Shown: positions 15,601 through 63,502 of the stretch, in pieces
Numbering within the stretch: position 1 is the first letter of the stretch
Layout: the number at the start of each line of letters is the position of its first letter
Assembly: GCA_963665275.2 (NCBI GenBank)
Contig: CAXXIN010000013.1
Location: 64,001 to 128,000, forward strand
Source of the DNA: Negativicutes bacterium
GTDB lineage: Bacteria; Bacillota; Negativicutes; UBA1444
DNA length: 64,000 bases
Direction: 5' to 3'
Translations under genes and position numbers: made by a program
The notes under the pieces: model-generated
The model's input: only the letters and a program-made list of their open reading frames with translations
Databases searched by the model: none
What the model was told of the DNA's origin: nothing

Positions 15601-15742
15601 TCGCATCAAGCAGGGAAGTTTTCCCCGAACCGGTCGGTCCATGGATCAAAAAGAAGCGGTAAGCACCCAGTTCGGAAAAATCGATCATCTGCTGACCCGC
15701 ATAGGGTCCGAACGCTCGGATGTCCAGTTTTATCGGTCTCAT
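12685..15742 (-). CDS. sbcC: SbcC/Rad50-like ATPase, split by one frameshift near 13565-13575
   Basis: N part has GPTGSGKT and CPVCGS zinc hook; C part has LSGGETF, FVDEGFGTLD, IISH; the two ORFs overlap in different frames. Confidence 0.85.
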
Positions 15743-21084: not shown

Positions 21085-22110
21085 TTATATCATTTTATTC
21101 AGATCACGATTTCCGCCTAATCTCCATAAGCTTATTTTATAAATGCCCCGTTCTTTTGCTAGGCTGCTCCAATAATTCAGGGTCTTTACATCAGCATACC
21201 ACACTTGGTAATGAACCCCGTCATTTTCATATTCAAAAAACTGACTCTGGCTGTCTTTATCCCGTTGCGGCACGGCATCATAGGTCGCAGACAGCACTTG
21301 CGCTTCCGCTTCCGTCACCAGTTGCTTTTTCCCATTGGATCCCCATACACAGCCACCTGTCGCAAATGCAACCGATTTTTCTCCCGGCAGGCTGTCCATT
21401 TGGGTCAAGAGAGTTTGAATGAAAGTTTTATTCGCTTTGGGGCCTGGACCACTATGCATCCCATACAGGTTATAAAACATGACAATATACTCCGGTCCAT
21501 TGGCAAACGCCGTTGAGGCAAACGGAGTATTCGGCTCCAAAACAACCCTAACTTTCAAATTTTTGTTCCGGGCACGTGGATATAGTTTATTGACAAACCG
21601 CAAAAAAAGTTGCCCTACGGGTTCATCCTTCCATACTCTCTCATAATCAATTTCCAATCCATCATAGCCGCCTTCCAGGGTCAAGGCGATGATGTCATCG
21701 ATATGTTTATCCATGGAAGCCTCATTCGACAGCAGTCGGCGCAGGACTTCCGTATCCTTGAGCACAACGGTTCCATCGATAACCTTCTTGTCATTGACAA
21801 ACGAAAGATAAGTTTCATAGGGCATTTTCTTACGTTTATGCTCGCTTTTTATCTCGCGAATCGCCGCCGGTATGAATAGTCGATCCAATTCGTCATAATA
21901 GGCGCCGAAATAAACAAGTTTCCCGGCCTTGTTGCCCATTTTGACCAAATCTTTGCCGCCCGCGTCCAAATCCCAATAAGCCAACCAGACCGATCTATTG
22001 ATATCCTCTTTCTCCATGGATTTGGCGATCAGGTGATTGCTTTGCGAGCACCCTGCCAAAACAAGAAAAACGACCAGCAACATAACAGCTTTACCCAATT
22101 TATGCTTCAC
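21085..22110 (-). CDS. GH18-like glycoside hydrolase, predicted lipoprotein
   Basis: VLAGC lipobox; YDGLEIDYE (variant DxxDxDxE); MFYNL; SLWRLGG. Confidence 0.75.
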   Translation of the reverse strand: MKHKLGKAVMLLVVFLVLAGCSQSNHLIAKSMEKEDINRSVWLAYWDLDAGGKDLVKMGNKAGKLVYFGAYYDELDRLFIPAAIREIKSEHKRKKMPYETYLSFVNDKKVIDGTVVLKDTEVLRRLLSNEASMDKHIDDIIALTLEGGYDGLEIDYERVWKDEPVGQLFLRFVNKLYPRARNKNLKVRVVLEPNTPFASTAFANGPEYIVMFYNLYGMHSGPGPKANKTFIQTLLTQMDSLPGEKSVAFATGGCVWGSNGKKQLVTEAEAQVLSATYDAVPQRDKDSQSQFFEYENDGVHYQVWYADVKTLNYWSSLAKERGIYKISLWRLGGNRDLNKMI

Positions 22111-22129
22111 ACAAAGCCTCCCACGGCAA

Positions 22130-23998
22130 TTACAAGTTAACGATGAACCAGTTGATCAGAGTTTCCCACCACTGTTTCAGGTTATATTTTACAGCGTCCC
22201 ATCCTTGCAGTTTTCCATCGAACAGAACGCGTTCCTTCTCTGCTCCCGTGTTCTCAGTAATAACCAGTTTTTCGAATACACCATCATAAACATCATCCGC
22301 TAAGTTTCTTTGGCTCCAGCCGGATGCTTTCCAGCCTGATTCCAAATAAACCTTGCCGCCCTGCAAAACAGTAACCGCTACATCTTGAACGGCACTCTTG
22401 CCATCCACCATCACACTCAGTTTATCACCTTTGAGTGAAATCGTCAGCATGCGGTCGCCTTTAGCGTGAACACTAATTGTCGGTATGTATTCCGGAGCAC
22501 CTTCGGCAACACTAGGAACTTTCTCCAATTCCTTGTTTTTAAGTCGTTCAGCATAAATCTTCGCTTTTTCCGCCGATGTCGCATACCTTACGAAAGTTTC
22601 CAGTTCGCGTATTTCGGCGGCTTTCTTGTCTTCAGGAATCGATATGGGAGCCTTGCCATCGTGTTTATCCAAATTCAACTTGTGCAATACTTTTTCGGCG
22701 CCGCCGGTTCTTTCCCGCACATATAAAAAGTTGTCGGTGATGTCCACAGACAGATATCGGTTTAAGCTATTATCGGCCCTGAGATAAATACCCTGAGTCC
22801 CCACTTTATTTCCCTTGAGGTGTACCGAGACTTTCGCGTCCGCGAAGTCGGCATTGTTTCGCAAGCGAACCAAGCCGTTATCTTTGGGCAAACAAGTTAA
22901 AATCATCGTTTCGTTTTGGATCTCAAAAGCGCCTTTCAACGTATCCCAGGCTTGCTGACGCGATAAATCGCCACGAACAAATTCCATTTTTTGAAGGTTG
23001 TCATATTTGATGCGCATCAGCAAATGGTTGGTATACCAATAAGCTTGCGGCTGCATCCTAGTCAAATCATACGGACTGCTGTTTTTGACATTGAAAGAAA
23101 AGCCTTCCCTGTTAAAGTTGAGCTTGAATAGTTCTTTGATCCACTGCTCGTTCACGGCGCTCACTTTGTCGTTATTCCCGAAACTGCCGGTATTGGAATG
23201 CATTAAAATATAAAGTTTGGGTACATAACCAATCGCACTATTATATTGTTTTCGCAGCGTATCATAATCATACGAAATACGATCTTTCATTTTTTCATAG
23301 CTTTCTTTGGGAACGAAGTACTCATCGCGAACATAATCCATCAAATAATGATTGTATTTCCGGCCCAAATACGACATCACGCTGCTATGTTCCAACGGTT
23401 CCAATTCGCCCAAATAATTGTCGTAGCGATCAAAAACATTGATAAACGCCAGTCGGTAACCATTGGTTCCCATTTCCCAATAAGTAGTTCTTTCAAGGTC
23501 GACTAACTCTTCCGGCATTAAAAATTTAGTATCTTTTTTTTCAAACTTTTCCGGGTAAGTCAGCATGGTTGCCTTAAAATTCAAGTCTTCCAATATTTTT
23601 TGCGAAAAGATTGCCGTATCCCGGCGCCCATCCTCAAACATCAAAAATAGTGATTTTTCGGGAAGTATTTTGCCCGTTTGGTAATAATTGATAACATCTT
23701 GCTGCGTTATTGTCACATAGCCCTGATCTTTCAGCGCCTGCAAATGTTCTTGCAACCGTCCCACGCCTATGAGATTTTGATCGCCGATACGTTCCACACC
23801 AAAATAAGAAAGCGCAACGAACCCCCTGTCGCCTGCGAACCGGGTATTGGCTCGAGACACCGGTTCATAGGCGGTTAAGGTGACAATAGAGACGACAATG
23901 ATGGCCAACAATACGAGCAGTATCAGGCCTTGGAAAACACCACGGATAATTTTGTTTCTATTTTTGCGGCTTGTGTATTTTTCATCGTATGTCTTCAT
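22130..23998 (-). CDS. Membrane-anchored PgaB/IcaB-like polysaccharide deacetylase with C-terminal beta-sandwich region
   Basis: N-terminal TM; LKDQGYVTI...LPEKSLFLMFEDG (variant TFDDG). Confidence 0.65.
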   Translation of the reverse strand: MKTYDEKYTSRKNRNKIIRGVFQGLILLVLLAIIVVSIVTLTAYEPVSRANTRFAGDRGFVALSYFGVERIGDQNLIGVGRLQEHLQALKDQGYVTITQQDVINYYQTGKILPEKSLFLMFEDGRRDTAIFSQKILEDLNFKATMLTYPEKFEKKDTKFLMPEELVDLERTTYWEMGTNGYRLAFINVFDRYDNYLGELEPLEHSSVMSYLGRKYNHYLMDYVRDEYFVPKESYEKMKDRISYDYDTLRKQYNSAIGYVPKLYILMHSNTGSFGNNDKVSAVNEQWIKELFKLNFNREGFSFNVKNSSPYDLTRMQPQAYWYTNHLLMRIKYDNLQKMEFVRGDLSRQQAWDTLKGAFEIQNETMILTCLPKDNGLVRLRNNADFADAKVSVHLKGNKVGTQGIYLRADNSLNRYLSVDITDNFLYVRERTGGAEKVLHKLNLDKHDGKAPISIPEDKKAAEIRELETFVRYATSAEKAKIYAERLKNKELEKVPSVAEGAPEYIPTISVHAKGDRMLTISLKGDKLSVMVDGKSAVQDVAVTVLQGGKVYLESGWKASGWSQRNLADDVYDGVFEKLVITENTGAEKERVLFDGKLQGWDAVKYNLKQWWETLINWFIVNL

Positions 23999-24001
23999 GA
24001 T

Positions 24002-25840
24002 CTACGCCTTTGCCTGTTTTACTGCAGGCTTTTTCAGCATTGAAGCAAGGTCGGCAGGTGTCATGCGGGTGCCCCAGGTTGTCTTCCAGAAAGTTACCCA
24101 GGCAATGGGCATCTGCCAGAGCAATATGACCTCATAATATAAACAAAACCAGAGACCAAAACTCCAGGTCGAGCTTTTTCTGAGAAACAATTGCGCCATA
24201 CTCATCAGCAAGGCCATTAATACAAGACCAAAAAGGAAGGTCATCGGCCAAACCCGATGGACGATCGGAATATAGATCAGATTGTATAGCACGACCACCG
24301 GCGCCAGTATCGGTATCAGCAGGCCCATATAGAACGAAAGGGCCATAAAAGGTTCCTTCCTCCACATAAATCGAGCTGCAATCAAAGACTCTCTCAACCA
24401 TGAACGTTTCCAGCGCATTTGCTGTTTCAAAAAAACACTATGAGTACTGGGCACAATCGTGGCGCATATTGCAGTATCTTGATAACAAGTACGGTTGTGG
24501 CGCAAGATGAAGTTCGTCATGCTGCGGTCATCGCCGAAGGTGGCTCTTTCACCCAAAAACTTTTGATTTCGCCAGTCTTCCAGATACTTCAAAATCAAGT
24601 CTTTGCGGTAACAGGCCAGCGGCCCGGATAAACAGGTCACTGCATCAAAGTAACTTTCGGCGGCCTTCATGATACGAAATGCAATATAATAGCGTACGGA
24701 CTGCATTTTCGTCAACGCGCTGGAAAAAGTATTGGCAACATCGGTTCTGCCGGACACCCCACCCATTTCTTCATCCTTGAAGGGCTGAACAAGATTGCGA
24801 ATCGCAAAAGGATCCAAAAAACTGTCGGAGTCAACAAACACCATCAGCTCATGCTTGGCCATTAAAGAGCCTACCGCCATCGCTTCGCGTTTCCCGGCAT
24901 TTTTTGCTTGCCGGATATAACGAATCCGGTTTTGGGTATCATAACGGCTTTCTTTTATTTTCAGTTCATCAACAATTTCTTTAATTCTTTCAAATGAGTT
25001 GTCATTGGAGCAATCATCAACAACGATGACTTCCAATTTATCCAGCGGATAATCTTGGTTAATGCAGCCTAAAATCGTTCTTTGAATCATCTGTTCTTCG
25101 TCAAAGCAAGGAATAACAATGGAAACCCCCGGCGTAAAGTCGGGATCAATTGGGACTGGACGATAAAACATCGCAACGAAATATCGACTCAACAAAAAGG
25201 TAGCCGCAATAATACTATACAGGTACAGGTATTTATTAAATTTGAAGTAAAGAATACTTTCGACCCGCATCAACATAACGCAGGCTACGATTACGAACAA
25301 GAAAAATGAAGCCGCCGATATCATATACCAGTTTTTTTTCTTGGAGGCATATTGCGCAATCGTCTCGGAAAATTGAACGGCGCATTGGACTTTCCCGTTG
25401 TTTGCGTTGCCAAGCCGCATTATTTTCGCTGCAATATTGACACTCATCTCATAACCTTCCGGCATTGTACCGGGAACTATGGTAAATTTAAGCCGGACTT
25501 GTTCCCCTGGTTGCATGTCTTTGGCGTCTTCCTGGGATATTTCCAACAACATTCCTGTCGTAGATATGTCGATACTTTTCCCGCCACAGCTACTATTTCT
25601 AAAGGCAGAAGCATAGTGGACCGCGACATCATAATTAACCAAATAACGCCGTCCGCCTTTTTCATTTTCAATAAGCGCCGCAACATCACTTGATTGTTCA
25701 TTACTTATAGCCTGACGTCGGTCAGTATTGCTCCGCACATTTTCTTTATCCGGCACTTTGGAAAGCAGCCTGCGATCGGGTTTCCCTACCGGCAACACCT
25801 CGGAAATATCTTTAAGTACTGGTTGAAAAAACTGATCCAC
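24002..25840 (-). CDS. Processive GT2 synthase (hyaluronan synthase/NodC-like) with N-terminal PilZ domain
   Basis: DISTTG PilZ motif; VDDCS, GKR, VDSDS, SGPL.CYR, GDDR.MTN, QQMRW; TM helices on both sides. Confidence 0.85.
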   Translation of the reverse strand: MDQFFQPVLKDISEVLPVGKPDRRLLSKVPDKENVRSNTDRRQAISNEQSSDVAALIENEKGGRRYLVNYDVAVHYASAFRNSSCGGKSIDISTTGMLLEISQEDAKDMQPGEQVRLKFTIVPGTMPEGYEMSVNIAAKIMRLGNANNGKVQCAVQFSETIAQYASKKKNWYMISAASFFLFVIVACVMLMRVESILYFKFNKYLYLYSIIAATFLLSRYFVAMFYRPVPIDPDFTPGVSIVIPCFDEEQMIQRTILGCINQDYPLDKLEVIVVDDCSNDNSFERIKEIVDELKIKESRYDTQNRIRYIRQAKNAGKREAMAVGSLMAKHELMVFVDSDSFLDPFAIRNLVQPFKDEEMGGVSGRTDVANTFSSALTKMQSVRYYIAFRIMKAAESYFDAVTCLSGPLACYRKDLILKYLEDWRNQKFLGERATFGDDRSMTNFILRHNRTCYQDTAICATIVPSTHSVFLKQQMRWKRSWLRESLIAARFMWRKEPFMALSFYMGLLIPILAPVVVLYNLIYIPIVHRVWPMTFLFGLVLMALLMSMAQLFLRKSSTWSFGLWFCLYYEVILLWQMPIAWVTFWKTTWGTRMTPADLASMLKKPAVKQAKA

Positions 25841-25873
25841 ATGCCGCCCCCCTCTCCGTCATCGATAAGAAAT

Positions 25874-28504
25874 TTATCTTCCGCTATTATGTTGAGTTGT
25901 CAATTCCAATGATTTTTTACGATCGATTTGGGAATATCCCTGAATTAAATAATCCGACAATTGCCCGATTCTAAACTTGGTTGGATCCGAATCCCGTTTG
26001 TTTTCGTTGGCTGTCAACAATAGATCCAAAGCTACGGCAGTATAGATGGACGTATCCGACATGTGCATAACCAGGATCGCCCCTTTATTCACCTCACCGT
26101 TTTCAGTGTAAATCCCTTCCTTGAAGCGTTTTACAAGCTCGGCAACACTTTTCGCATCATAATCATGCGTACTATAAGAGCCTTGGACAATGAATTCAAA
26201 ACCAGCTTTGAAAACCGAGTCCACTCCATCTTTATTGATTGCCAGCTGTGGCGGTCGAAAGAAACGCGTCAATGAGTATTTACCGTTAACTGCCACGTCG
26301 CCTACCACGTCACGGAGTTTATGAAAGGAAGCTATCAGTTCCTGAACATATTCATCCCTGTTGTCCTGTGTTTTCACCTGTTTGCCGAGATTGGGATCCC
26401 GGACTGCCATGGGTTTGTGCTGATCCGAATGGTTGCCGATCTCATGTCCCTCCAACGCCATGGTCCTCAGTAGGTTGGGATTGTTCAGGACGGTTCTCGT
26501 GAGAATAAAGAACGTACCGAATACGTTATGCTTCCTGAGGACATAAAGCAGCTTGTTGATGGAAGCATCGGTTCCCCAGTCGTCAAAGGTCAGGAAAATG
26601 ACATTATCGCTAGCATGAACCAGTCCGCTCTTATCAAGGCGACGGGTTTCCATTTTAGAAAAATCGATGATTCGATCTTCGTCATTAACATCTATGTTCC
26701 CGATATAACGCTGGGACAGTTTGGTCACGAGACTTTTGTTTTCGCCTTCGAAAGCCGGAGTATCTTTCAGCAGCTGTGGCGGAACGTTCTTTAGGTCAAC
26801 GGGATAACGATAAAGAAATTTTTTGTTGCTGAGAAGGGTCCCCACAGGTTTGATCGTGTAACGGGAGTTATTGGACTTGTTATTTTCAGGGTTGTCATAA
26901 AACGTTGAATACGCGATATTATCAATTTTTTTGAGCTTGATAAGCTCTATTAAATTACCAACCAGCAAATTGTTGGTGTAATAATCCATCCGAAAATGCA
27001 CAATTTGGCCGCGGGCCAAAGAAAATAGGGACTTGGGAAAGATTTCATCAGCGACTTGGTCTGCTGTTGCATAATCTTTATGCTTGGTTTGAACCACGGT
27101 TACAGATTGCCCAATCATCACGCAACCCTGCGAGGAAACCGCCTGCATCGTCGCATCGGCAATCGCTCCGCCGGGCTGTTTCACCAGGTTGGTTTTGACT
27201 CCATATTGCGATTGCAGAACTTTGCGGCCAGAGAGTATCCGTTTTTCGACCTGATCCTGCGTTTCGCCCTCTTTAGGCCGTATCGCCAATCCAACTTCGT
27301 GCCCGCCTGCCAAGATCTGGCGAACAAGCTTCGGATACTGCTGCAATTCCAATTCTGTTACGAAGAACGTTCCAGCAACCTCCAATTGTTTCAAGCGATT
27401 CAGAACATCATTCACTACCGGTTCATTTGATAGTCCCGAAAACGAATAGGCTAATGCCGGTTCGGTTGTATAAATCATTTTGACTTCTTTATCAGGAAGG
27501 CCGATAATTTCCGCTGCGTATACTTTGCGAAGTGTAAACAAGCTCACTAACTCTTCATGGATAAAGTCAATCGCCTTGCCCACCGACCAACTTCCAGCCT
27601 TTGTTGTTGGGAATGAATCGACATAGACCGTCGCTATTTTCTCCTGAGCAAGTGCATTCAGCAGTTTTTCCACAGTCGCGACGATATCTTTTTCGCCCAC
27701 ATCCACAGGCTGCGCCAATACTTTCAAACCTGGCTGCTTGTCAATAGCCGGTTTTAAGTCGATTTTTCCTTTTTCATCGACAATCAGATCTGGATTAGGC
27801 TTCAATTTCACAGAGACAATACTGCCCGGGCGAATCTTATTGACGAAGCTTCGCGCCGCTTGGTCAGAATTCACATTTTTTGCGGTTACAAAAGTATCGC
27901 TCTTCACGACACTCTTGAAGCCGCAGGCTTTGGCCGCCTGCAATACTGGGTCTGTATATTTCGTATCGTTGGCTTTCAACAGATTAGGGCCATTATCCGA
28001 GGTCACCTTGATGATTTTTTGCGAGCGGCAAAAATCCTTTACCAAGCGTTCCGTCGGTAGCGTCTCCATTTTTGTCAACCCAATGAGGGTATAGTTTTCA
28101 ATCTTGTGGCCCGCTTTTCTGATATTCACAACGGTTTGAGGATCTTCAGCCGTTTGAATCCCATCAACAAAAAACGTAGCTTTGGCTTTATATTTGTCCA
28201 ATAAATCCAAAATTCTCTGCATCACGGCGCGATCCGTCAGTCCGTCGAACGTTAGAGCGATCTGGCGCTGATTGTCTGTGGCGCCGGTCGTAATCATTGC
28301 TTTCTCCGGATTCTTCTTCATGCGGTCCATCGCAGCAGCGATTTCGGCATCCGCATTATAGGCACTGCTCAAATCGGTTATATTTCGATATCCCCCGCCG
28401 GTCTGTTGCGTGAAATAACTTTTAAAGAAAAATACCCAACTCAAAGCCGCTACGATGAGCAGCACAACAAGCAACGAAATCACTTTTCCTCTCAAGCATA
28501 TCAC
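25874..28504 (-). CDS. Polysaccharide deacetylase with three NodB/CE4 domains
   Basis: LTFDGL, YSFSGL and LTFDDWG starts; only the third has HEIGNHSDQH, RPP and LVMH. Confidence 0.8.
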   Translation of the reverse strand: MICLRGKVISLLVVLLIVAALSWVFFFKSYFTQQTGGGYRNITDLSSAYNADAEIAAAMDRMKKNPEKAMITTGATDNQRQIALTFDGLTDRAVMQRILDLLDKYKAKATFFVDGIQTAEDPQTVVNIRKAGHKIENYTLIGLTKMETLPTERLVKDFCRSQKIIKVTSDNGPNLLKANDTKYTDPVLQAAKACGFKSVVKSDTFVTAKNVNSDQAARSFVNKIRPGSIVSVKLKPNPDLIVDEKGKIDLKPAIDKQPGLKVLAQPVDVGEKDIVATVEKLLNALAQEKIATVYVDSFPTTKAGSWSVGKAIDFIHEELVSLFTLRKVYAAEIIGLPDKEVKMIYTTEPALAYSFSGLSNEPVVNDVLNRLKQLEVAGTFFVTELELQQYPKLVRQILAGGHEVGLAIRPKEGETQDQVEKRILSGRKVLQSQYGVKTNLVKQPGGAIADATMQAVSSQGCVMIGQSVTVVQTKHKDYATADQVADEIFPKSLFSLARGQIVHFRMDYYTNNLLVGNLIELIKLKKIDNIAYSTFYDNPENNKSNNSRYTIKPVGTLLSNKKFLYRYPVDLKNVPPQLLKDTPAFEGENKSLVTKLSQRYIGNIDVNDEDRIIDFSKMETRRLDKSGLVHASDNVIFLTFDDWGTDASINKLLYVLRKHNVFGTFFILTRTVLNNPNLLRTMALEGHEIGNHSDQHKPMAVRDPNLGKQVKTQDNRDEYVQELIASFHKLRDVVGDVAVNGKYSLTRFFRPPQLAINKDGVDSVFKAGFEFIVQGSYSTHDYDAKSVAELVKRFKEGIYTENGEVNKGAILVMHMSDTSIYTAVALDLLLTANENKRDSDPTKFRIGQLSDYLIQGYSQIDRKKSLELTTQHNSGR

Positions 28505-28513
28505 CCCTTACAA

Positions 28514-29844
28514 TTATAGGCTCCAGTAAGAATATCCATGGTCTTCCATTGTTTGCTGGTCAAAGATATTCTTAACGTCGATAAGTACGGGTTGAGTGCT
28601 GCCGTCCTGCGGTTTAAACATCCGATCCAAATCTGCCAGCTGCAGCTCGGCAAACTGGCGATGCGCAACTAGAAACACCAAACAATCGGCGTTCACCACT
28701 TCGTGCAAGTCCACCAGCTCCGCATTCAATTCGGTGTGAAGCTCGTCGGCATCGATGAAAGGATCCGCAACTTTCACACGAAGGCCAAATGAACTGAGAT
28801 GCTTGAAAACATCTACCGCTTTGGAATTGCGCATATCGGGGACGTTTTCTTTGAATGTCAGTCCTAATATATATATATTGGCTTTACTGACATGCAGGCC
28901 CGCCAGAATCATCTTCTTGATGACTCTGTCCGCAACATAAAAGCCCATATCATCATTAATTTTACGGCCGGCTGCGATGATCTGCGAATGATATCCCAGT
29001 TTTTCAGCCTGATAGATGAAATAATAAGGATCAACGCCGATGCAGTGCCCGCCGACCAGCCCCGGATAGAACCCCAACGCATTCCATTTGGTGTTCATGG
29101 CTTCAATCACATCCAGGGTCTTTAGCCCCATCCGATCAAACACCATCGCCAATTCGTTCATAAATGCGATGTTAATATCGCGTTGGGCATTTTCAACCAG
29201 CTTAGCCGCTTCAGCCACCTTAATACTAGTGGCTTTGAAGATTCCCGCTGTAATGATTAATTCATAAATAGCAGCAATATCATTGCAGGTTTGTTCATCC
29301 ATCCCCGATACAATTTTTCGGATGTTTTCCAGCCTGTGAACTTTATCGCCGGGATTAATCCGCTCCGGCGAATAGCCAATTTTGAAGTCCTCACCACAGA
29401 CTAATTTCGACTTATTCTCCAGTATCGGAGCGCAAACTTCCTCGGTAACCCCGGATATACTGTCGATTCGAAGACAACGATGCAACCCGGGGATAGATTG
29501 GCCCCGACCATTTCACAAGCACTGATTACCGGCGCCAGATTCGGAGTTTTGTCTCCATTAACAGGCGTTGGTACAGCTACAATAATCACTTTGGCTTCTT
29601 TTAACCTGGCTGGATCTGTCGTAAACTCCAGCGTTGTTTGCTGCACTTTTTCATTACCGATTTCATTCGTCGGATCAACACCGTGCAAATACAGTTCAAT
29701 CTTTTCATGATTGACATCAAAACCAATGGTTTTTACTTTCTCAGCAAAGGCTACAGCCAGCGGCAATCCGACATAGCCTAGCCCGACCACCGCTAAATAT
29801 TCATGCCCATCCCGAACTCCAGCAAAGGTATTGACCATTTCCAT
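28514..29844 (-). CDS. UDP-N-acetylhexosamine 6-dehydrogenase (WbpO/TviB-like), frameshift at 29449-29452
   Basis: GLGYVGLP, FESTVYPG|VTEE, YSPERINPG, GLVGGHCIGVDPYY; one extra G in the G4 run restores the frame. Confidence 0.85.
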
Positions 29845-31730
29845 TAGAAAAAGGCTGTCAAGGAGCCCCACCAGGTTGATCCCGGCTCTCCTGTCGTTAT
29901 TTCATGCAAATTATAATATTCCAGTCCGCCAACCAGATTTTCCGCCAATGTGTAATAAATTCCAATACCCAGTCCCCTATAACCCTGCATCCACCCGCCT
30001 CTGCCATTCATACTCGGCGAAATGTAAGTATATCGCGGTTGCGAGTAATATCTGGCAAAAATGCCATAAGTCCCCGGTCTCCAGGTTTTTAACTGGCCAT
30101 AATTCAAACCAAACACATAACCAAAATTATTGCCCTGGCTATCTTTCTGGCTTGCAAGCAAAATCATCGAACCCAGGCTGAAATTGCTGAATTTGTATTC
30201 TCCGGCCAAATTCACAATTGTATTCTGTTTCTGAAGCTCCTCATTCATCTTATAGTTATAGACACCAGCTTCCAGATTATAATCCAAAGCTTCCTGCCGC
30301 GCAGTGGCGATAAAGCTCTGTGTCGTATAATCGGTGTTCCCAAAAGCAAACGTATACTTTACAGGTCCACCAAAAGTAACCCTGCCGCCTACGAACGTGC
30401 TATCATAAATATTTCCGTCGGCCATAAAATAACCAAACGACCCTGCCTGAATAGTTCCCCCTTTAATATTTCCCGTCGTACTTAAACGAAAGGTAACTGC
30501 GTCATTATAATTCAGAAAACTCTTTTCTCCTTCAAGCATCCCATTAAAACGCCAATCCTTATTAACCCATACTTCGGCTCCAACGCGGGCGCGAAGGCCG
30601 GATGTATTCTGTCCCCAGCTTTGGTACCCTTGATTGACAGCGTAATGATACCGAATGTTTCCATCGATCTTCACTTTGTTGATCGGACTCTTTTTCGCGT
30701 CTCCCACGGTCATCAAATCGTTCATGATACCTGAATAAGTGTCTGGGGTAAGGGCTTTGGGCGCACGTGCTGCAGGCGGGCTTGCCGCATAAGCATTCGG
30801 CGGCGCAGCCGGCTTAGTTGTGCCTTGCGGCGCTGCGGATTCTTTGGGTCCGGCGACATTTGTCTGACTCGGCAAGCTTGTCGCGCCACCGGTCGCTTGT
30901 CGGGTCGCGTTGACGTGGTTAACATCAACCGTGTCCATATACTTGGTCGTCAGTTTGGCAAGATCGTTTGAAAAATCAGCTTTGGCCTTTTCAATGTTCA
31001 ACTTCGGATTGCTATATATCCTACTTTTGATTTGCGCCATGTCATTGCCGAAAGCAGATCTCTGGTCTGGCAACAAAGTTGGGCTAAGGTTGGCAACGGT
31101 TTGATCAACTTCGCTATCAACAGTGACCTTGAATTTTATAACATTATTATTAGGTAAAGCCCCAATCTTCTCAGCAAGCTGTCTCATTTCAGCAGCAAAA
31201 TCAGCTTTTGCTTGCTGAGGCGTGGCTTGAACTGGAGCAGCTTTTTCGCTTGTCACCTTAGTAGCTCCGGCGCTGATCGCTGAATTTGGAGTTTTATTTT
31301 GACCTTTATCTGGAACTGTATTTTTCGCAACTACAACCTCACGCGATTCCACTTTGGGCATAAAAGCCGATGTGATTTGCGCAACATCATAAGAAAAGTC
31401 CGCTTTGGATTTTTCAATGTTCAATTTGGGATCGGCGTATATTTTATTTTTGATCCGCGTCATTTCGTTAGCAAAAATAGGGCGTTGGTCCGGCGGCAGG
31501 GTTGGGTTGAGTTTGGCAACCGTTTGATCAACTTCACTATCAAGCGTAACCTTAAATCTAATGACATTATTATTGGGCAACGCAACAATCTTCGACGTCA
31601 GTTGCGCCATTTCGTAGGCGAAATCCGCTTTATCCTGCGCATGAGCCGTCTGAATAAAAAAACCTTCAATCGATAGTCCGATTATACTTAGCATGAAAAA
31701 CAGTACTATGAGCTTTTTCCCCAACCGCAT
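29844..31730 (-). CDS. Secreted protein with duplicated N-terminal helical domain and C-terminal OmpM-like beta-barrel porin
   Basis: Signal peptide (AHA|Q); two ~92 aa repeats; KVKIDGNIRYHY...VNKDWRFNGMLE; alternating aromatic strands; terminal Phe. Confidence 0.7.
   Translation of the reverse strand: MRLGKKLIVLFFMLSIIGLSIEGFFIQTAHAQDKADFAYEMAQLTSKIVALPNNNVIRFKVTLDSEVDQTVAKLNPTLPPDQRPIFANEMTRIKNKIYADPKLNIEKSKADFSYDVAQITSAFMPKVESREVVVAKNTVPDKGQNKTPNSAISAGATKVTSEKAAPVQATPQQAKADFAAEMRQLAEKIGALPNNNVIKFKVTVDSEVDQTVANLSPTLLPDQRSAFGNDMAQIKSRIYSNPKLNIEKAKADFSNDLAKLTTKYMDTVDVNHVNATRQATGGATSLPSQTNVAGPKESAAPQGTTKPAAPPNAYAASPPAARAPKALTPDTYSGIMNDLMTVGDAKKSPINKVKIDGNIRYHYAVNQGYQSWGQNTSGLRARVGAEVWVNKDWRFNGMLEGEKSFLNYNDAVTFRLSTTGNIKGGTIQAGSFGYFMADGNIYDSTFVGGRVTFGGPVKYTFAFGNTDYTTQSFIATARQEALDYNLEAGVYNYKMNEELQKQNTIVNLAGEYKFSNFSLGSMILLASQKDSQGNNFGYVFGLNYGQLKTWRPGTYGIFARYYSQPRYTYISPSMNGRGGWMQGYRGLGIGIYYTLAENLVGGLEYYNLHEITTGEPGSTWWGSLTAFF
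30935..31635 (-). repeat. Internal duplication of a ~92 aa domain
   Basis: KADFAxEMxQL..KI.ALPNNNVI.FKVT.DSEVDQTVA.L.PTL.PDQR...PKLNIEK.KADFS occurs twice. Confidence 0.9.
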
Positions 31731-31813
31731 CGTTCGCACCGCCACCTTAATTTTACGTTAGTCATTTTGTTTTCGAATAATCGATATTCACAGCCCTGCA
31801 AAGGCTCTCATTT

Positions 31814-34705
31814 TTACCGGGTACCAGAAATGAATAGGTTTCGTCTGATAATCTTCCCTGCGTTGGCAGATTTATTGGGAATAGGTGTATTCACCGCTTC
31901 CGCAACGTCATCTGGTGACGCCATTTGGGCGGGAGTCACAATCACTTCATCAGGGATTGCCTCCGAAATGTCTGCGCATGCGTCTTTGGCGGTATCCCTC
32001 ATAATCCACGCTTCCCACGTTGGCACCGTTTTGACAGGGGACACGTTCAGTTCAGCATTACAATCTCTAACAATCCGTGGTTCCCACGCTGGCGCCAATT
32101 TTTCGAGAGGCACAGTCACTTCAGCAGGGATTAACTCCGGTATGCTTTCACTTGTCGCTGGGGCAGCATCTCTCACAATCCACGGTTCCCATGCCGGCGA
32201 CGATATTTCGGAAATCACATTCTCTTCCACGGCGACTAACTCTTCCGGTATGCTAACACTTTGTTCTTGGGCGGAATCTCTTTCAATCCAAGTTTCCCAC
32301 AGCGGTTCCGTTTTTTCGGGAATCGCAGTCTCTTCAAAGGAGACCAACTCCTCCGGTATGCTAACACTTTGTTCTTGGGCGGAATCTCTTTCAATCCAAG
32401 TTTCCCACAGCGGTTCCGTTTTTTCGGGAATCGCAGTCTCTTCAAAGGAGACTAACTCCTCCGGTATGCTAACACTTTGTTCTTGGGCGGAATCTCTCGC
32501 AATCCACGTTTCCCACAACGGTGCATCGCCCGTCAGTTCGGGATGGGCTGCCGACGGTTCACGGCCCGCAAGTTTTGACTTGATGCGAATCGTAACATTT
32601 TTCCTTAACCTGTTACGGTTTTGCTGTTCAGTTGGTAAAACGGCGCCCGCAGTCACAGTTTCGAGAATTGGAACCGTAGTCTGTTCCATAGAACGAGGCT
32701 CTTCGAGTATCTCTTCGCGAGCCTCTTCCGCTCTAGCCTGCTCCGTTTTAGGTTTTCTATTGAAACCGAAGAAAAACAACAACAACATTATTAATCCGGC
32801 AAATGCTGCTCCAACGATGATAATCGGTTTCTTATATTGCCCCCAGTAACGGGTAAACACCCCTTGTGCAACCGGTTGCACAACCGAGGTGCTGTTATCA
32901 ACATCACGCACATCCACAGAAAAAATCCGGCCTGGTTGCCGGAACGCCATGACATTCCCCACCAGAGGCTCGTAATGTCCGGGGCGATTCAAAAACCGCA
33001 ATGCCGCCACAAGTAACCCGCCGTTCTGTTTTGTTGAAAATACAATAACTGGAGCTCCGTTATTCCCGGCGATTTTCCCCACAACCGAATTCAAATTGGG
33101 TTGTAACTCAGTCGGTATTGGCGGATTATTGTCCTGATACCCAGCTACACTCTGTCCCGGCAGAGTCGGCATGAGGTCTTGCAAAAAGGGCGGTTCATTC
33201 CCGGCGTTGATCAACGCGACGACATATTGATCCGGTGGAAGAAAAGTCTGCGCCGCCAGCGTCTGCAGGGTTGGAAAAGCATAGGTCGCCGTTGGCAGCT
33301 GCCGATTAAGGAAAACCATTAGCTCAGCGATCATTTTAAGCGGATCGCCCAACTTTTCATCCAGCAATACCGTCCCTTGTCGAGCAAAAAATATGCCGAT
33401 ATTGGACCACCCAAAATGATCCAGCTTTTGCTGTCCCGTTCCCCACATGTAACTGTTGGGAGAAACTTGCACCGAATGAGTAGTCCCACGAATCTGGCAC
33501 TGCCCCTGCTCTTCGGGATAATTTACTTGAACGTTCAGATTATTTTTCGACAACATCTCGGTACCAGTAGGCAGGGCAATATCTCTGCTAAATTGGCCTG
33601 CTTGATCCAGTGCCGAACTGTGCATCAATTTGCTGTTAAAGAACACATCAAGCCTTGCGGGCCTGGCCTGGTCAAATGCCACCATATTGGATCCTTCAAG
33701 GTGAATACCCATTTTTTCCGGTACATTCCCCCAAAGTGACGGGTATAGCGGGAAATCGGACGATACTTGCAAAACACCTTCCTGAACCGTCTGATTGCCG
33801 AATGAAATTTTTTCCGTTCCTTTTCCATCAGAATTCGTGGCAGAATTACTTTCGGGGGTGCGGCCAACGACCGAATTGCGCGGGAAAACCGGCAAATCCG
33901 CAAGCTGTCTCGCCACGGATTCAAGCTCACTTACACTACCCGCTGAAAGCAACAAGGTATTCGGATCCGCCAAGGCAATTCCGGCCTGCGTTTTGTTAAA
34001 ATAGGCAGGCAACTGGTTTCGCAAGGCGACCCAAATGCGAGGTGTGTTGGGTCGATCTCCCACCTCCCCCGCTTTAGCGATCTGAACATCCAAATGGGGA
34101 TAGTTTTTCTTTAATATGCCAAACGCCCACGCTGCCGGCGTCATTTCAGCCAATCCGGCATTATCGGGAACTACAATCAGCGCCGACTGTTGAAAATTGC
34201 CAAAAAAGTCCGCTACGCTGCGAACCGGCATCATATCATAATTCAAATCAATTTTTGTATCATTATGAACTGTATAAAATAGACCGCCTGTATAATAATC
34301 GCGGCAGAGATCATTGGAAATGAACATGTTCGCTTTGATCTGGAGGCGGAAAGCATCTCGAAACTCACCATCCAGCGGCAGATTGACTGTGATTTTTTTC
34401 TGTGCTCTCAGTTGTTTTACGGTTTTGCTCTCCAACAACTTATCGTTGAAATAAAATGAAAACAGAGCATCATCGTGAAGTTGAGGACTCGGCGTAAGTG
34501 AAAAAGTGGCAGAAGCCGAATAAATTTTAGCTAACCGTGGCACTGGAAACACCATTGACAAGGATGAGTTCGGAGCCTTAACGACAAGCTCTTTCTCGAA
34601 TTCGAGCGCATCCAGTCCAACGCTGCGATTGGCGGCCTGAACAGGCAATGCAATATGGAATACAAGCAAGACCGTAAGCATTATTCCAACAAATTTTCTA
34701 GTCAT
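31814..34705 (-). CDS. BcsB-like periplasmic co-polymerase with long acidic, repetitive C-terminal tail
   Basis: Signal peptide; DLCRD...LFYTVH and a second Cys (QCQI); TM near residue 640; paralog of 61373-63397. Confidence 0.65.
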   Translation of the reverse strand: MTRKFVGIMLTVLLVFHIALPVQAANRSVGLDALEFEKELVVKAPNSSLSMVFPVPRLAKIYSASATFSLTPSPQLHDDALFSFYFNDKLLESKTVKQLRAQKKITVNLPLDGEFRDAFRLQIKANMFISNDLCRDYYTGGLFYTVHNDTKIDLNYDMMPVRSVADFFGNFQQSALIVVPDNAGLAEMTPAAWAFGILKKNYPHLDVQIAKAGEVGDRPNTPRIWVALRNQLPAYFNKTQAGIALADPNTLLLSAGSVSELESVARQLADLPVFPRNSVVGRTPESNSATNSDGKGTEKISFGNQTVQEGVLQVSSDFPLYPSLWGNVPEKMGIHLEGSNMVAFDQARPARLDVFFNSKLMHSSALDQAGQFSRDIALPTGTEMLSKNNLNVQVNYPEEQGQCQIRGTTHSVQVSPNSYMWGTGQQKLDHFGWSNIGIFFARQGTVLLDEKLGDPLKMIAELMVFLNRQLPTATYAFPTLQTLAAQTFLPPDQYVVALINAGNEPPFLQDLMPTLPGQSVAGYQDNNPPIPTELQPNLNSVVGKIAGNNGAPVIVFSTKQNGGLLVAALRFLNRPGHYEPLVGNVMAFRQPGRIFSVDVRDVDNSTSVVQPVAQGVFTRYWGQYKKPIIIVGAAFAGLIMLLLFFFGFNRKPKTEQARAEEAREEILEEPRSMEQTTVPILETVTAGAVLPTEQQNRNRLRKNVTIRIKSKLAGREPSAAHPELTGDAPLWETWIARDSAQEQSVSIPEELVSFEETAIPEKTEPLWETWIERDSAQEQSVSIPEELVSFEETAIPEKTEPLWETWIERDSAQEQSVSIPEELVAVEENVISEISSPAWEPWIVRDAAPATSESIPELIPAEVTVPLEKLAPAWEPRIVRDCNAELNVSPVKTVPTWEAWIMRDTAKDACADISEAIPDEVIVTPAQMASPDDVAEAVNTPIPNKSANAGKIIRRNLFISGTR
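32234..32521 (-). repeat. 108-bp tandem repeat, about 2.7 near-identical copies
   Basis: Units start at 32234, 32342, 32450 and encode WETWIERDSAQEQSVSIPEELVSFEETAIPEKTEPL. Confidence 0.95.
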
Positions 34706-37885: not shown

Positions 37886-38880
37886 TCAAAACCCCTTTGA
37901 TTGTCGATAGCCTGCCAGAATCTGATCCACCGTCCGAGTTGCCCGAGCCGCACTGGCAGCATCGCCGGGGCACTTGCCCACACCATTGAGCTCATCAACG
38001 ATGGTTTGGATAAAGGGCTGCTGCACATGAACCGGGTTAGCATAGTGCAGTTCCCTGATACCCTCCTTCGTATGAACGTATACCGGCTGATCCGAGAAAA
38101 AAGGCAAACCGGATTCTCCCGGTAGAACCTTCAATGACCACTTCGTCGCGGTATTCAAAGCAAGTGTAGCCCCAACTGCCGGTACCCAGTACCCCGGACG
38201 CGGATCTCCAGAGCGCCGTCACGACATCCTCGACCTCATATAATCCAGCCTGATTTCCCGCAATGCCCACGCACTTCCTCCATCGGGCCGAAAAGGAAGT
38301 CCATCATATCAATCACGTGGATGCCGCTATCGAGAAACTTGCCGCCGCCGGCGATTTGCGGCAACAACCTCCACGGCAAATGGTCGCGGTCAAAATCTGT
38401 CGGCTGAGGCGGTTGGTATTGCGTTACCTGGACGATTCGCACTTCGCCAATAGCTTTTTGATCCAGAAGATCTTTAATTTTGATGAACCGGTCCATCGCC
38501 CGGCGATAAAAAGCAACATAGAGCGGCGTCTGTGCCAATTCAGCTGCACGGATCATTTCCAGGCAATCTTCGTATCGATCGGCCATGGGCTTTTCTACAT
38601 AGGCCACTTTACCATGTTTCGAGCATAACAGGGCATACTGCTTGTGGAAGGCAGGCGGCGTCGCGACATACACCGCGTCGATTTCCGCATCACTCATCAT
38701 CTCTTCCACAGAAGCGTAAACCTTCGGCACGCCATGTCGCTTCGCATAGTCCACGGCCCGCTCTTCATGAAGGCTGAAAACGCCCTGCAGCGTGGAGTGG
38801 TTGGCTTTGTAAAGCCCCGGGCCGCTTTTCACTTCCGTCACTGCGCCGCAGCCAATCATCCCCCAGCGAATAGTCCTCAT
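37886..38880 (-). pseudogene. Gfo/Idh/MocA oxidoreductase interrupted by two +1 frameshifts (about 38267 and 38100), possibly sequencing errors
   Basis: GCGAV, VATPP..H, VEKP, GGG.FLD.GIH; three consecutive ORF pieces join at G3 and T6 runs. Confidence 0.75.
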
Positions 38881-38925
38881 AGCACACCTCCTGTTGAAAT
38901 TGTCAATGCAGCAATTATTGCAGCG

Positions 38926-40085
38926 TTACACTTCGTAATCATCCAGTATCGTCCGAAGAATATCTTTCTCGGAGTAATGTTCAAGAACATACTGTCTTTC
39001 AGCGTTTGCTTCGATTTTACCTGCCTGCCACAATCGATGATACTCCATGATTCCTTCAGCAATAGCTTCCGGATGAATGCTGGCAAACAAACGCTCCGGT
39101 TTCCCTCGCAAAACCTCTGGAAAAGCGCAAATCGGCGTAGCCAAAACAGGAGTTCCACAGGCCATGGCTTCGAGAACAGGCAGGCCAAATCCTTCACCAT
39201 CAATGGATGGCATAATAAAAACATCTGCGGCCTGATATCGTTGCACAACTTCCTCATCAGGCACATACCCCAAGAATGATACCGAGCCGGCCAATCCCAA
39301 CTCCGTCGCCCAGTTGCTCCAACTCGTTTCGCATGGGTCCCTTTCCGCCGATAATCAGCTTGGCATGAGGAATGCGATCTTTGATCAGCGCAAATGCTCG
39401 AATCAAATTGTCCAGGCCCATTCGCGCCTGCAGTCCGCGAAGCGTATAGATAATGAAATCAGTGGCTTCCATAGCTAATTCCGACCGAACCGACTCCCGA
39501 TTGACCGGCAAAACGAAGATGTCCATGTCGATCCAATCAGGCACAATTCGAATCTTGGCGCCGAACGCTTCATAGTCTGTAATCCGGACCCGCGTATAGT
39601 CTGAAATGCAGTGGATTTTCGCGCTGCGCGCATACACGGCATTTTCGATATGGGTCATCATGCGTTCCTTCAAGCTTGAATCTTGGGACAAAGTTCCCAG
39701 CATTTTATGATGGTAGATCATCGGGTCGTGAACCGTAAATATTTTCCTAACTTTGGAGGACAAATACCGGGATAAAAAATAGTAAGTCATATAGTCATGT
39801 CCGTGCAATACATCCGGTTCCTGGTCCCCAAAATGCGTTTTCCAGCCGCGCCAGCAGTTCGCCATCATCGTTGCAAAATTCATCACTGAACTGCGCCGTT
39901 TTTGAAATGCGAAGGTATATACGGGGACTCCTTCCAATTCGTAGGACTCACATAGGGTACTGGGGCAGAATATTACCGCGTCAAATCCGCACTTGCGCAA
40001 GCTTTTGGCGTGTGTAAGTGCAACCACTTGCAACCCCCCGTTTTTGCCGCGGATCTGCCGAAGATAGTATGGTTATTTTTTTCAA
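38926..40085 (-). pseudogene. GT4 glycosyltransferase interrupted by two frameshifts (about 40043 and 39310)
   Basis: TTG start after AGGAG; GGLQ N-terminal motif; EGFGLPVLEAMACGTPV in last piece; breaks at A5/G6 and G3 runs. Confidence 0.75.
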
Positions 40086-40157
40086 TGAGTTAATTCTCCT
40101 TTCTCTAATGAGCAAGAAGTTGAAACAAGCTGTTTCTGCGCTGTTCTTTCAGTATTA

Positions 40158-41057
40158 TTATCCATATCTCCGATACCAATAGGCCGATAACCATCGAAGG
40201 GGTTTGAGAATATCCGTGATATTTATTAACCCATCGGTCACTTCCCACTGGTCATTATAATTGTAGGTATGCAGTTTTTGATTTTTCTCGCACCAATCGG
40301 GCCCAATCTCCGATATTGGCTTCTCCTCGTAGTGTGTTTCCGTCAAGCTGGTGATCTCGTTAAATACCACAGATAATCCATATTTTCCGGAACAGTTTTG
40401 AGCCGGTCGAATTAATTTTCCGTCACAAAAAAATAGGTTTCCTGCCGGACGCGCTGTTCGAGAATCTCGATTAACCGGATTTTGCGTGTGGGGGAGTCCA
40501 TTCCGAATATAAAGAATCAGCAAAAAAGACGTGCAAATCCCCAGCATATGCAGGATTTTTCGCATCCAGCATATTGGTAAACAACCACCACTTTTTATTG
40601 TAAAAAAACAACGTTGAATCAGCGGTCTTAAACCCGCTCATCAACACTCGCTTCAATATCCATTGATCGGGGAAAATTTACAGCCTCATACAATTCAACC
40701 GTATTGTTGACGCTGGTATCTGGAATCATAAAAAATTCCTTGATCTGTCTTAAACAGAAAAGGATAGGCGAGGTGATGCTCTTTTTCCAATACAACCTGG
40801 GGCGTTGAATACTTTCCATGCTCGTCAATCTCAATGCAGCTAATAACGCCTTTCCGCTTTTTCAGATGAAAATCCTCAAAAAAAACAAAGTGCTTCCCTG
40901 CATTTTCAATCACAAACGGATCGGCAAAAAATCTTCCTGCCGAGGGGCGAATGATTTGGAAATCATTCATGGGCAAGGGTAAGGAAAAAGGCTGTTTCTT
41001 GCGAAATGCAATAAACCATTGCTGAAAAACAAATAATCTCTCCAGTGAAATCATCAC
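40158..41057 (-). pseudogene. Beta-propeller protein (GINT1 N-terminal/GH43-like) with three frameshifts
   Basis: FFADPF, HLAYPF, MIPD, WWLF, RPAG, RPAQ pieces align in order with the C-terminal half of 51443-53146. Confidence 0.7.
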
Positions 41058-43830: not shown

Positions 43831-43881
43831 CCAATTCCCTCTTTCACAAATCAATCGTCTTTTCTTAGCAACTTCCCCTTA

Positions 43882-63397: not shown

Positions 63398-63425
63398 CGG
63401 CGATAGAGGCCAAGTGCTAAAATTC

Positions 63426-63462
63426 TGAAGAAAGCAGACGGCATCGTCATCTGCTTTCTTCA
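63426..63462 (-). terminator. Strong hairpin / probable intrinsic terminator downstream of glgP
   Basis: Perfect 13-bp inverted repeat TGAAGAAAGCAGA/TCTGCTTTCTTCA. Confidence 0.65.
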
Positions 63463-63502
63463 ATTCGCGCATAACTTAAGAAGCGACCAGCTTGTCCCTT
63501 TT

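Follow-up and report, generated by a model that had tools for sequence, protein, structure and literature searches.

Class I hyaluronan synthases (HAS), among them the Xenopus enzyme XlHAS1, the Chlorella virus enzyme CvHAS and the streptococcal and Bacillus hasAB systems, combine a single family 2 glycosyltransferase (GT2), which carries uronate-stabilizing channel residues and a gating loop, with a linked UDP-sugar dehydrogenase. In XlHAS1, R287 and R296 are reported to stabilize glucuronic acid (GlcA) in the channel (PMC11750622), and in CvHAS the donor carboxylate is described as framed by K177 and R341 (PMC12987647). Here we describe a gene cluster at positions 21085-34705 of a 64-kb window (the whole stretch of DNA analyzed, from the Negativicutes contig CAXXIN010000013.1) that has all of these features but differs from class I HAS in the N-terminal PilZ-like domain of its synthase, in a dehydrogenase of the N-acetylhexosamine (HexNAc) type in place of HasB/Ugd, in a membrane partner, and in the addition of a deacetylase, a family 18 glycoside hydrolase (GH18) and an outer-membrane pore. 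That the cluster encodes a secreted-polysaccharide system is highly probable, and the reading for which we argue, with reasonable but not strong confidence, is a new type of synthase-dependent system, for exopolysaccharide or capsule, that would work through the steps set out below.

The cluster works like a Pga, Alg or Bcs system yet fails membership of each, pairing a HAS-like active site with a different precursor enzyme, which supports the initial annotation, where a mix matching none of the Bcs, Pga, Alg and Pel systems had been seen. With the pgaABCD system for poly-N-acetylglucosamine (PNAG) it shares the synthase-dependent logic, a carbohydrate esterase family 4 (CE4) fold near PgaB/IcaB and, on the barrels of Sporomusa, PgaA-like tetratricopeptide repeats (TPR). 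It differs in a PgaC score under the cut-off, in having no PgaD Pfam match in the cluster and no GH153, in a CE4-fold protein that has lost the His ligands and whose C-terminal domain is CBM66-like, and in an OmpM-type barrel that has no sequence relation to the PgaA-like one; the class also has true pga operons, separate from this cluster. As in the cellulose systems (Bcs and clostridial Ccs), PilZ is fused to the synthase and, in the window's genus, a BcsB-like gene is present, but PilZ is N-terminal (C-terminal in BcsA), the CelA score is far under its cut-off, the BcsB-like gene is not core, and BcsC, GH8 and GH5 were not found. Alginate secretion (Alg8/Alg44/AlgD/AlgK/AlgE) is alike in its operon-encoded dehydrogenase and would be alike in its uronate polymer, PilZ control and TPR plus barrel export, whereas the present cluster would use UDP-HexNAc rather than GDP-mannose chemistry, a HAS-type GT2, a 16-stranded OmpM barrel, and GH18 and NodB instead of a lyase and acetyltransferases. 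The Vi antigen system (TviB/TviC/TviE) offers a TviB-like dehydrogenase and a UDP-HexNAc-uronate donor, but there is no TviC in the cluster, and a processive membrane GT2 stands in place of TviE and an ABC transporter. NodC has Glu where the synthase has Arg at position 383, the NodC profile score is under its cut-off, and no acyltransferase (nodA) is among the seven genes.

The closest solved relatives of the synthase are class I HAS (Xenopus, E = 5e-38; Chlorella virus, 7e-30), whereas a cellulose synthase structure matched only at E = 5e-5. The protein has the DxD, catalytic Asp and QxxRW motifs together with transmembrane (TM) helices, as a processive inner-membrane GT2 should. Residues K317, R383, Y384, F388, R389, K392, C403, D438 and R439 are invariant in all 26 aligned sequences, as are R476, W477, S480 and the gating loop W589-R592; the acceptor collar, channel-entry basic residues and gating loop of class I HAS are kept, with Lys replacing Arg at 392. 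R383 and K392 align to R287 and R296, the basic pair in IFH1 of XlHAS1 (chain numbers run 13 above those of the paper, an offset counted by hand), and K317 and R476 correspond to K177 and R341 of CvHAS. Position 383 is Arg also in Bacillus HasA and Glu in NodC and PgaC. R365 is conserved in at least 90% of the aligned sequences, and the extra positive charge of R389 and R365 would fit a strongly anionic chain. Profile scores were 178 for NodC (cut-off 550; the best NCBIfam match), 114.6 for PgaC (422.3) and 41 for CelA (699). Identity to Bacillus HasA is ∼30% in the alignment, and the JGI, NCBI and UniRef labels all read hyaluronan synthase. In the GT2 tree the window's copy groups within Sporomusaceae. 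Closest structures and channel residues therefore bear out the HAS-like synthase of the initial annotation. Residues 70-159, N-terminal to the GT2 domain, match PilZ in Pfam (28.5 bits against a cut-off of 22.5) and keep its second motif (S93, G96), and the host genome has 56 GGDEF matches; control by cyclic di-GMP (c-di-GMP) through this domain is a prospect that we favor by a little.

The dehydrogenase had been read as a UDP-HexNAc enzyme, an assignment that stood: intact homologues (four of four) are TviB-like, scoring 424-452 bits with TviB as against 199-224 with WecC and at most 152 with Ugd, and the closest solved structures are of the UDP-HexNAc type. TviB is described as producing UDP-N-acetylglucosaminuronic acid (UDP-GlcNAcA) (PMC8760489). 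Because the enzyme is TviB-like and the cluster has no epimerase, UDP-GlcNAcA is the simplest donor, and the pairing of HAS uronate-binding residues with a HexNAc-type dehydrogenase predicts a HexNAc-uronate polymer rather than hyaluronan, although we put the presence of HexNAc-uronate in the product only somewhat above an even chance. In this assembly the gene is split into open reading frames (ORFs) at 29401-29871 and 28514-29485 by a base missing from a stretch of G. One extra base at 29448 is the sole difference in the Logan contigs of X1 and X2, two public runs either of which may be the window's own source sample; three of the four runs spanned the stretch, and the contigs of X4 break at that point. 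Relatives have a single intact ORF of ∼440 residues, so the split is an assembly error, and a true pseudogene was rejected on the extra base at 29448.

A GTDB genome scan with the GT2 found 173 relatives, and the Negativicutes and monoderm locus counts given here come from the best 80, which record titles and the GT2 tree divide into 43 loci of Negativicutes, 35 of monoderms and 2 of Desulfovibrionaceae; upstream genes were counted only in loci with at least 6 kb upstream and downstream genes in those with at least 3.2 kb downstream. Upstream, Negativicutes loci hold the barrel in 33/33, the dehydrogenase in 32/33 and NodB in 33/33, as against 0/23, 9/23 and 22/23 in monoderms, and none of the 35 monoderm loci has a barrel match. 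Downstream, all 34 Negativicutes loci contain both the CE4-fold protein and GH18; of 30 monoderm loci, 29 contain the former and 28 the latter. In genome samples the GT2 occurs in 54 of 201 genomes of the Negativicutes class (about a quarter), in 10 of 401 of the phylum (3 of these being PilZ-less relatives at 38-41%) and in 8 of 151 Desulfovibrionaceae; hosts outside Negativicutes include Lachnospiraceae, Oscillospiraceae, Clostridium, Cohnella and Desulfovibrionaceae. Within the class, every one of the 54 genomes with the GT2 also has the barrel. A further 21 have a barrel match, 20 from one family (29-48% identity) that are probably ordinary OmpM paralogues, and one from a fragmented assembly. 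The nine Desulfovibrionaceae loci examined all run GT2, CE4-fold protein, 1600-residue TPR protein, with GH18 in seven, a beta-helix-like protein in six, and dehydrogenase, NodB, OmpM barrel and BcsB in none. The conserved operon comprises six genes (barrel, TviB-like dehydrogenase, triple NodB, PilZ-GT2, CE4-fold protein and GH18), the BcsB-like gene not being among them. Its core is GT2, CE4-fold protein, GH18 and deacetylase, the dehydrogenase being usual, the outer-membrane exit lineage-specific and the BcsB-like gene local. The locus counts bear out the expectation that the barrel would be confined to diderms, but not that the system itself is specific to them, as monoderm Clostridia and Bacilli commonly have the core without a barrel. 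Since the hosts are kin, the pattern across envelopes comes down to a contrast between barrel-less monoderms and two diderm lineages whose exits differ.

Titles and gene content clash in L085, L091, L053, L061 and L038, two "monoderm" titles encoding LpxC, and records titled "Bacteroides" and "Chloroflexi" nest among Clostridia in the tree. In the five of seven records with conflicting or uninformative titles that were checked, the two with a barrel have LpxC and none was found in the three without. Barrels in monoderms were rejected, as the "Lachnospiraceae" and "Acholeplasmataceae" records concerned have an LpxC gene and group in the tree with Megasphaera and Acidaminococcaceae.

The gene directly after the synthase had been taken for a PgaB-like CE4 modifier, a role that the residues do not bear out. 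Its model (predicted local distance difference test (pLDDT) 90, predicted template modeling score 0.87) consists of an N-terminal helix and TM anchor, a PgaB/IcaB/PplD-fold domain (Z 20-21, root mean square deviation (rmsd) 2.6-3.1), a CBM66-like beta-sandwich (Z 17.1, rmsd 2.3, 149 aligned) and a C-terminal helix; it has a weak PgaB N-domain profile match and no Pfam family. Residues H39, D101, D102, H162 and H167, invariant in the ten true PgaB sequences compared, align to F66, E122, D123, N179 and A184. Position 179 is Asn or Gln in all 61 sequences and His in none, and at 66 and 184 His is outside the four commonest residues. Because the His ligands are lost, among residues that we take to be the metal and acid ligands of PgaB, the protein is most likely catalytically dead, and we refer to it as pseudo-CE4. 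It follows the GT2 directly in 78 of 79 loci, and in all nine examined in Desulfovibrionaceae. A model of the GT2/pseudo-CE4 complex scored 0.63 against 0.05 for the best control, with contact agreement of at least 73% between runs and partner pLDDT of at least 79; the mark for such scores, which 116 of 157 solved pairs attained as against 2 of 215 mismatched ones, applies roughly here, where our own alignments were used. In the model the N-terminal helix of pseudo-CE4 lies on the cytosolic face of the GT2, its residues 3-27 being predicted to touch GT2 residues 355-358 and 496-501. Pseudo-CE4 is thus likely to be a direct partner of the synthase and, because it directly follows the GT2 and docks in a controlled model, is a likelier co-polymerase than the BcsB-like protein.

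The BcsB-like protein, proposed earlier as the system's co-polymerase, proved to be a genus-restricted accessory. Its N-terminal BcsB match covers residues 40-175 only (49.7 bits). It is absent upstream of the cluster in all 30 long Negativicutes loci from named records, the sole match among them (L087) lying downstream in a separate pga operon. A search with a single query (the window's second copy), which distant copies may escape, found it in 19 of the 201 class genomes, seven of which also have the GT2, adjacent in four; it was not found in 47 of the 54 GT2-positive genomes. In the window's genus it stands directly before the barrel in all four GT2-positive genomes, and these four copies form one clade (100/99), sister to pga-associated copies. 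The tree has 21 rows (G012:C402 and a G004 fragment were left out), of which 10 are in pga-type operons and 3, including the window's second copy, precede Wza/Wzc clusters; pga context was assigned by hidden Markov model in L119 (PgaB and PgaC over cut-off), L111 and L124 and by alignment in the others. At the site after glgP in this genus, a BcsB-like gene is followed either by a pga cassette (G010) or by the one described here (G007, G011); the window has, in between, a Wzy cluster that carries a further BcsB-like copy.

Several observations attach to these genes. The cytoplasmic tail of the BcsB-like protein contains a 108-bp tandem repeat (32135-32522, 3.6 copies, 87% match), at which public contigs break. 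The second copy (61373-63472, minus strand, 699 residues, 44% identical to the first) directly precedes wza/wzc-like genes of a Wzy-dependent cluster (∼35-61 kb), an arrangement also seen in L110 and L126. The site between glgP and an amylopullulanase/4-alpha-glucanotransferase gene (17616-64000 in the window; also L018, L111, L115) holds different polysaccharide cassettes per genome and resembles a cassette-exchange site. Negativicutes pgaABCD operons with an extra BcsB-like gene occur in L119, L111-L114, L120-L122, L124 and L125; in L119 this gene is fused to PgaD (Pfam PgaD at 109-236 of 912 residues), as it probably is in L121 and L122, an unusual PNAG system with a cellulose-type co-polymerase.

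The barrel model (pLDDT 78, the barrel part mostly >90) has 16 strands in residues 356-633, and a structure search placed it nearest OmpM1 (Z 27.4, rmsd 2.3, 273 aligned), ahead of porins (20.3), PelB (16.4), PgaA (15.4) and AlgE (14.0). It has no Pfam family, and its Atlas label is only "porin/hypothetical". Like the OmpM of diderm Firmicutes it has 16 strands and a C-terminal Phe, but it is restricted to this operon, none of the 34 family members scanned has a Pfam surface-layer homology (SLH) match, and helical units or TPR serve as stalk: two ∼95-residue helical units, 69% identical, take the place of the SLH stalk here. Some Selenomonadaceae and Pectinatus N termini look SLH-like by eye. 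The system had been described as lacking TPR, which holds for the window copy but not for seven Sporomusa-clade loci, where a TPR stretch of ∼650 residues, with 33-37% identity to a PgaA-like protein from a Negativicute, is fused before the barrel (for the Sporomusa barrel, 36% over 695 residues against the PgaA-like protein encoded in a pga operon of that class). TPR domains are reported to be required for PNAG export (PMC5933820). The Sporomusa array has no sequence relation to the Desulfovibrionaceae TPR protein, which has a weak C-terminal barrel match below cut-off. That the barrel is the exit for the polymer appears fairly likely.

Of the triple NodB protein, only domain 3 looks active by motif, with a full catalytic set (D641, D642, H692, H696, R750, D781 and H814) invariant in 15/15; domains 1 and 2 are without the histidines. 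Its best profile models are PdaB and PdaA. GH18 matches Pfam weakly (25.7 bits, under cut-off) and is closest in structure to YdhD and SleL/YaaH; within DxDxE, D155 and E157 are invariant in 20/20, and the first Asp is Glu (E153 here) in at least 90%. GH18 catalysis requires an N-acetyl group at the -1 site, which makes this gene an independent pointer to an N-acetylated polymer. In Selenomonadaceae and Dialister-like loci (L020, L021, L032, L040, L049, L096, L103-L105) the triple NodB is split: one domain precedes the GT2, and the remaining two follow GH18.

In the scheme that we propose, the dehydrogenase, with the activity predicted from its TviB-like family, would make UDP-GlcNAcA. The GT2, judging by its HAS-like residues, would polymerize and translocate a beta-linked, N-acetylated, uronate-containing chain, either alternating GlcNAc-GlcNAcA or poly-GlcNAcA. 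The dead CE4-fold/CBM protein, genetically coupled to the synthase, would dock by its N-terminal helix, as modeled, and guide the chain, replacing BcsB or PgaD. NodB domain 3 would then partly de-N-acetylate the chain and the GH18 lipoprotein trim or release it, as their motifs suggest. The co-occurrence pattern points to exit through the OmpM-derived barrel in Negativicutes and through the TPR protein with its C-terminal barrel match in Desulfovibrionaceae, whereas monoderms would have no outer-membrane exit. The BcsB-like protein would be a local accessory acquired from pga-type operons of the same genus.

A number of findings weigh against this scheme. The PilZ-like domain is without the canonical in-line RxxxR, for which conserved arginines 24, 36 and 65 may substitute. 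The dehydrogenases fall under the TviB equivalog cut-off (592), and the gene is missing from 14 of the 23 monoderm loci and all nine of Desulfovibrionaceae. Five genomes with dehydrogenase-less loci gave a 58-69% orthologue elsewhere in three (the two inspected lie within other polysaccharide clusters) and 37% matches only in two; one of two Desulfovibrionaceae genomes has a best match of only 29%, and three of the seven dehydrogenase-less genomes tested have no match above 37%. Two long conserved barrel loops sit, in the model, at the constricting loops 3 and 7 of OmpM1, whose constriction is given as ∼3.7 Å, passing monosaccharides and not disaccharides (PMC10628300); since OmpM1 excludes disaccharides, a polymer could pass only if the pore were wider or gated. 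The window copy has no TPR, nor was a PgaA-like TPR protein found in the genome. The match of barrel to diderm envelope also comes from essentially two lineages rather than from 56 independent cases.

One alternative is that the enzyme is a true hyaluronan synthase, with UDP-GlcA supplied from elsewhere or the dehydrogenase misassigned, and the product a modified hyaluronan. The database names, the HAS channel residues and the loss of the TviB-like gene in some hosts all suit this alternative; we regard it as unlikely, since identity to Bacillus HasA is so low, the linked dehydrogenase is of the HexNAc and not the Ugd/HasB type, and a dehydrogenase of the HexNAc type also accompanies the more distant relatives that have no PilZ (two of two scanned). 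To our knowledge, moreover, class I HAS require no partner, deacetylase or GH18. A short oligomer or envelope-bound glycan (Nod-factor-like or periplasmic), with the OmpM paralogue as small-solute porin, tether or anchor, is about equally improbable. NodC being the best NCBIfam match, the NodB and GH18 genes alongside, and the seemingly retained constriction loops of the barrel model would all suit it, and K392 equals the R296K change reported to shorten the product of XlHAS1 (PMC11750622). Against it, NodC has no gating-loop motif in addition to its Glu at 383, and the Sporomusa TPR graft and the 1600-residue Desulfovibrionaceae protein are hallmarks of polymer exporters.

If instead all seven genes formed the system, with the BcsB-like protein as required co-polymerase and the PgaB-like protein as active deacetylase, the position of the BcsB-like gene before the barrel throughout the genus, and its co-inheritance with the cassette as one clade, would fit; its scarcity among GT2-positive genomes, its other contexts (pga-type operons and Wza/Wzc clusters) and the missing His-179 of pseudo-CE4 make this very unlikely. 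The least probable alternative, for which we see little chance, is a sporulation locus whose hydrolase and deacetylases remodel spore cortex or peptidoglycan. It draws on the kinship of GH18 to YdhD and YaaH/SleL and of NodB to PdaB and PdaA, and on Cohnella L069 and L071, where, read by eye, the cluster directly precedes dacF-spoIIAA-spoIIAB-sigF-spoVA. However, no LysM domain was seen in GH18 (Pfam), and Megasphaera, Selenomonas, Pectinatus, Dialister and Desulfovibrionaceae, which are not known to sporulate, have an intact cluster.

The earlier description of the locus itself was accurate: seven ORFs, co-oriented and closely packed, with domain assignments that agree with Pfam or profile matches (some weak) and the barrel model. 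In gene order, the BcsB-like and barrel genes are 68 bases apart, the barrel stop and dehydrogenase start share one base at 29844, as had been noted, and the remaining gaps are 9, 33, 3 and 19 bases. GC content is 43-50% in the cluster and 55-60% in the flanking 8-20 kb.

Table 1. Genes of the cluster, in window coordinates
Feature	Position	Strand	Basis
BcsB-like protein, 963 residues	31814..34705	-	signal peptide, periplasmic part, TM helix 625-649, low-complexity tail
Outer-membrane barrel, 633 residues; proposed export pore	29844..31745	-	predicted OmpM-fold barrel, co-occurrence
TviB-like UDP-HexNAc C6 dehydrogenase	28514..29844	-	profile scores; split at ∼29448 in this assembly only
Membrane-anchored triple NodB/CE4 protein, 876 residues	25874..28504	-	three Polysacc_deac_1 stretches
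PilZ-like domain fused to class I HAS-like GT2, 612 residues	24002..25840	-	Pfam, alignment
Pseudo-CE4 partner, 622 residues; proposed co-polymerase or scaffold	22130..23998	-	predicted fold, alignment
GH18 (YdhD/SleL-like) predicted lipoprotein, Cys21	21085..22110	-	weak Pfam, structure match

Across the window, an Rfam search gave no match, and neither promoters (30 against 23.8 ± 5.5 in shuffles) nor terminators (21 against 15.9 ± 3.7) were in clear excess. Other split ORFs (12685-15742, sbcC-like; 38236-41057; 42384-43854) include glycosyltransferases and one of two tandem wcaJ-like genes, which suggests more indel errors in the assembly.

Relatives of the cluster show further variants. 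L038 (8273-9970, 15405-17990) and L041 have a NodB-GDSL fusion, and genes downstream of it resemble, by eye, those for an MBOAT and for a protein of AlgJ type, which suggests that the polymer is O-acetylated. Oscillospiraceae loci L045, L046, L052, L054 and L060 have up to five NodB-type genes and, next to the dehydrogenase, a divergent 350-450-residue gene that belongs to no known family. Three PilZ-less GT2 relatives (36-38%; L107:6345-9048, L109:7811-10819, L108:5546-6967) are without pseudo-CE4 or GH18, and two of them adjoin a UDP-HexNAc-type dehydrogenase, a simpler sister system. A ∼745-residue protein of the Desulfovibrionaceae version (L093:11471-13711, L139:2551-4788) has no Pfam family; beta-helix and polysaccharide-deacetylase families occur in 13-19% of the members of its Atlas neighbors (0.93-0.94), and it is a candidate substitute for the triple NodB or, alternatively, a candidate lyase or epimerase.

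We found no description of the cluster in searches of largely open-access full-text literature. In its main text, an operon survey (PMC7112194) makes no mention of hyaluron-, Selenomon-, Pelosinus, Veillonell- or Desulfovibrio. The cluster is apparently undescribed. Tentatively, it may even represent a widespread unrecognized family alongside those for cellulose, PNAG, alginate and Pel, with a c-di-GMP-gated HAS relative, a zwitterionic, hyaluronan-like GlcNAcA polymer, a dead-deacetylase co-polymerase and an outer-membrane exit gained twice, one exit being an ancestral OmpM tether-porin turned polysaccharide channel onto which a PgaA TPR was later grafted.

Because Sporomusa, Pelosinus and Pectinatus are cultured hosts, tests of the system are already possible. 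It provides a natural comparison for uronate-donor selection by HAS-type enzymes and an instance of one secretion core with and without an outer membrane, in which OmpM is proposed to have been co-opted as the exit. If our reading is correct, many proteins labeled "hyaluronan synthase" make another glycosaminoglycan-like polymer, and the finding would bear on the surface glycans of gut commensals, on electrosynthesis and brewing biofilms, and on the engineering of hyaluronan analogues. The cluster would then be a new type of slime or capsule machinery in anaerobic bacteria of gut and soil.

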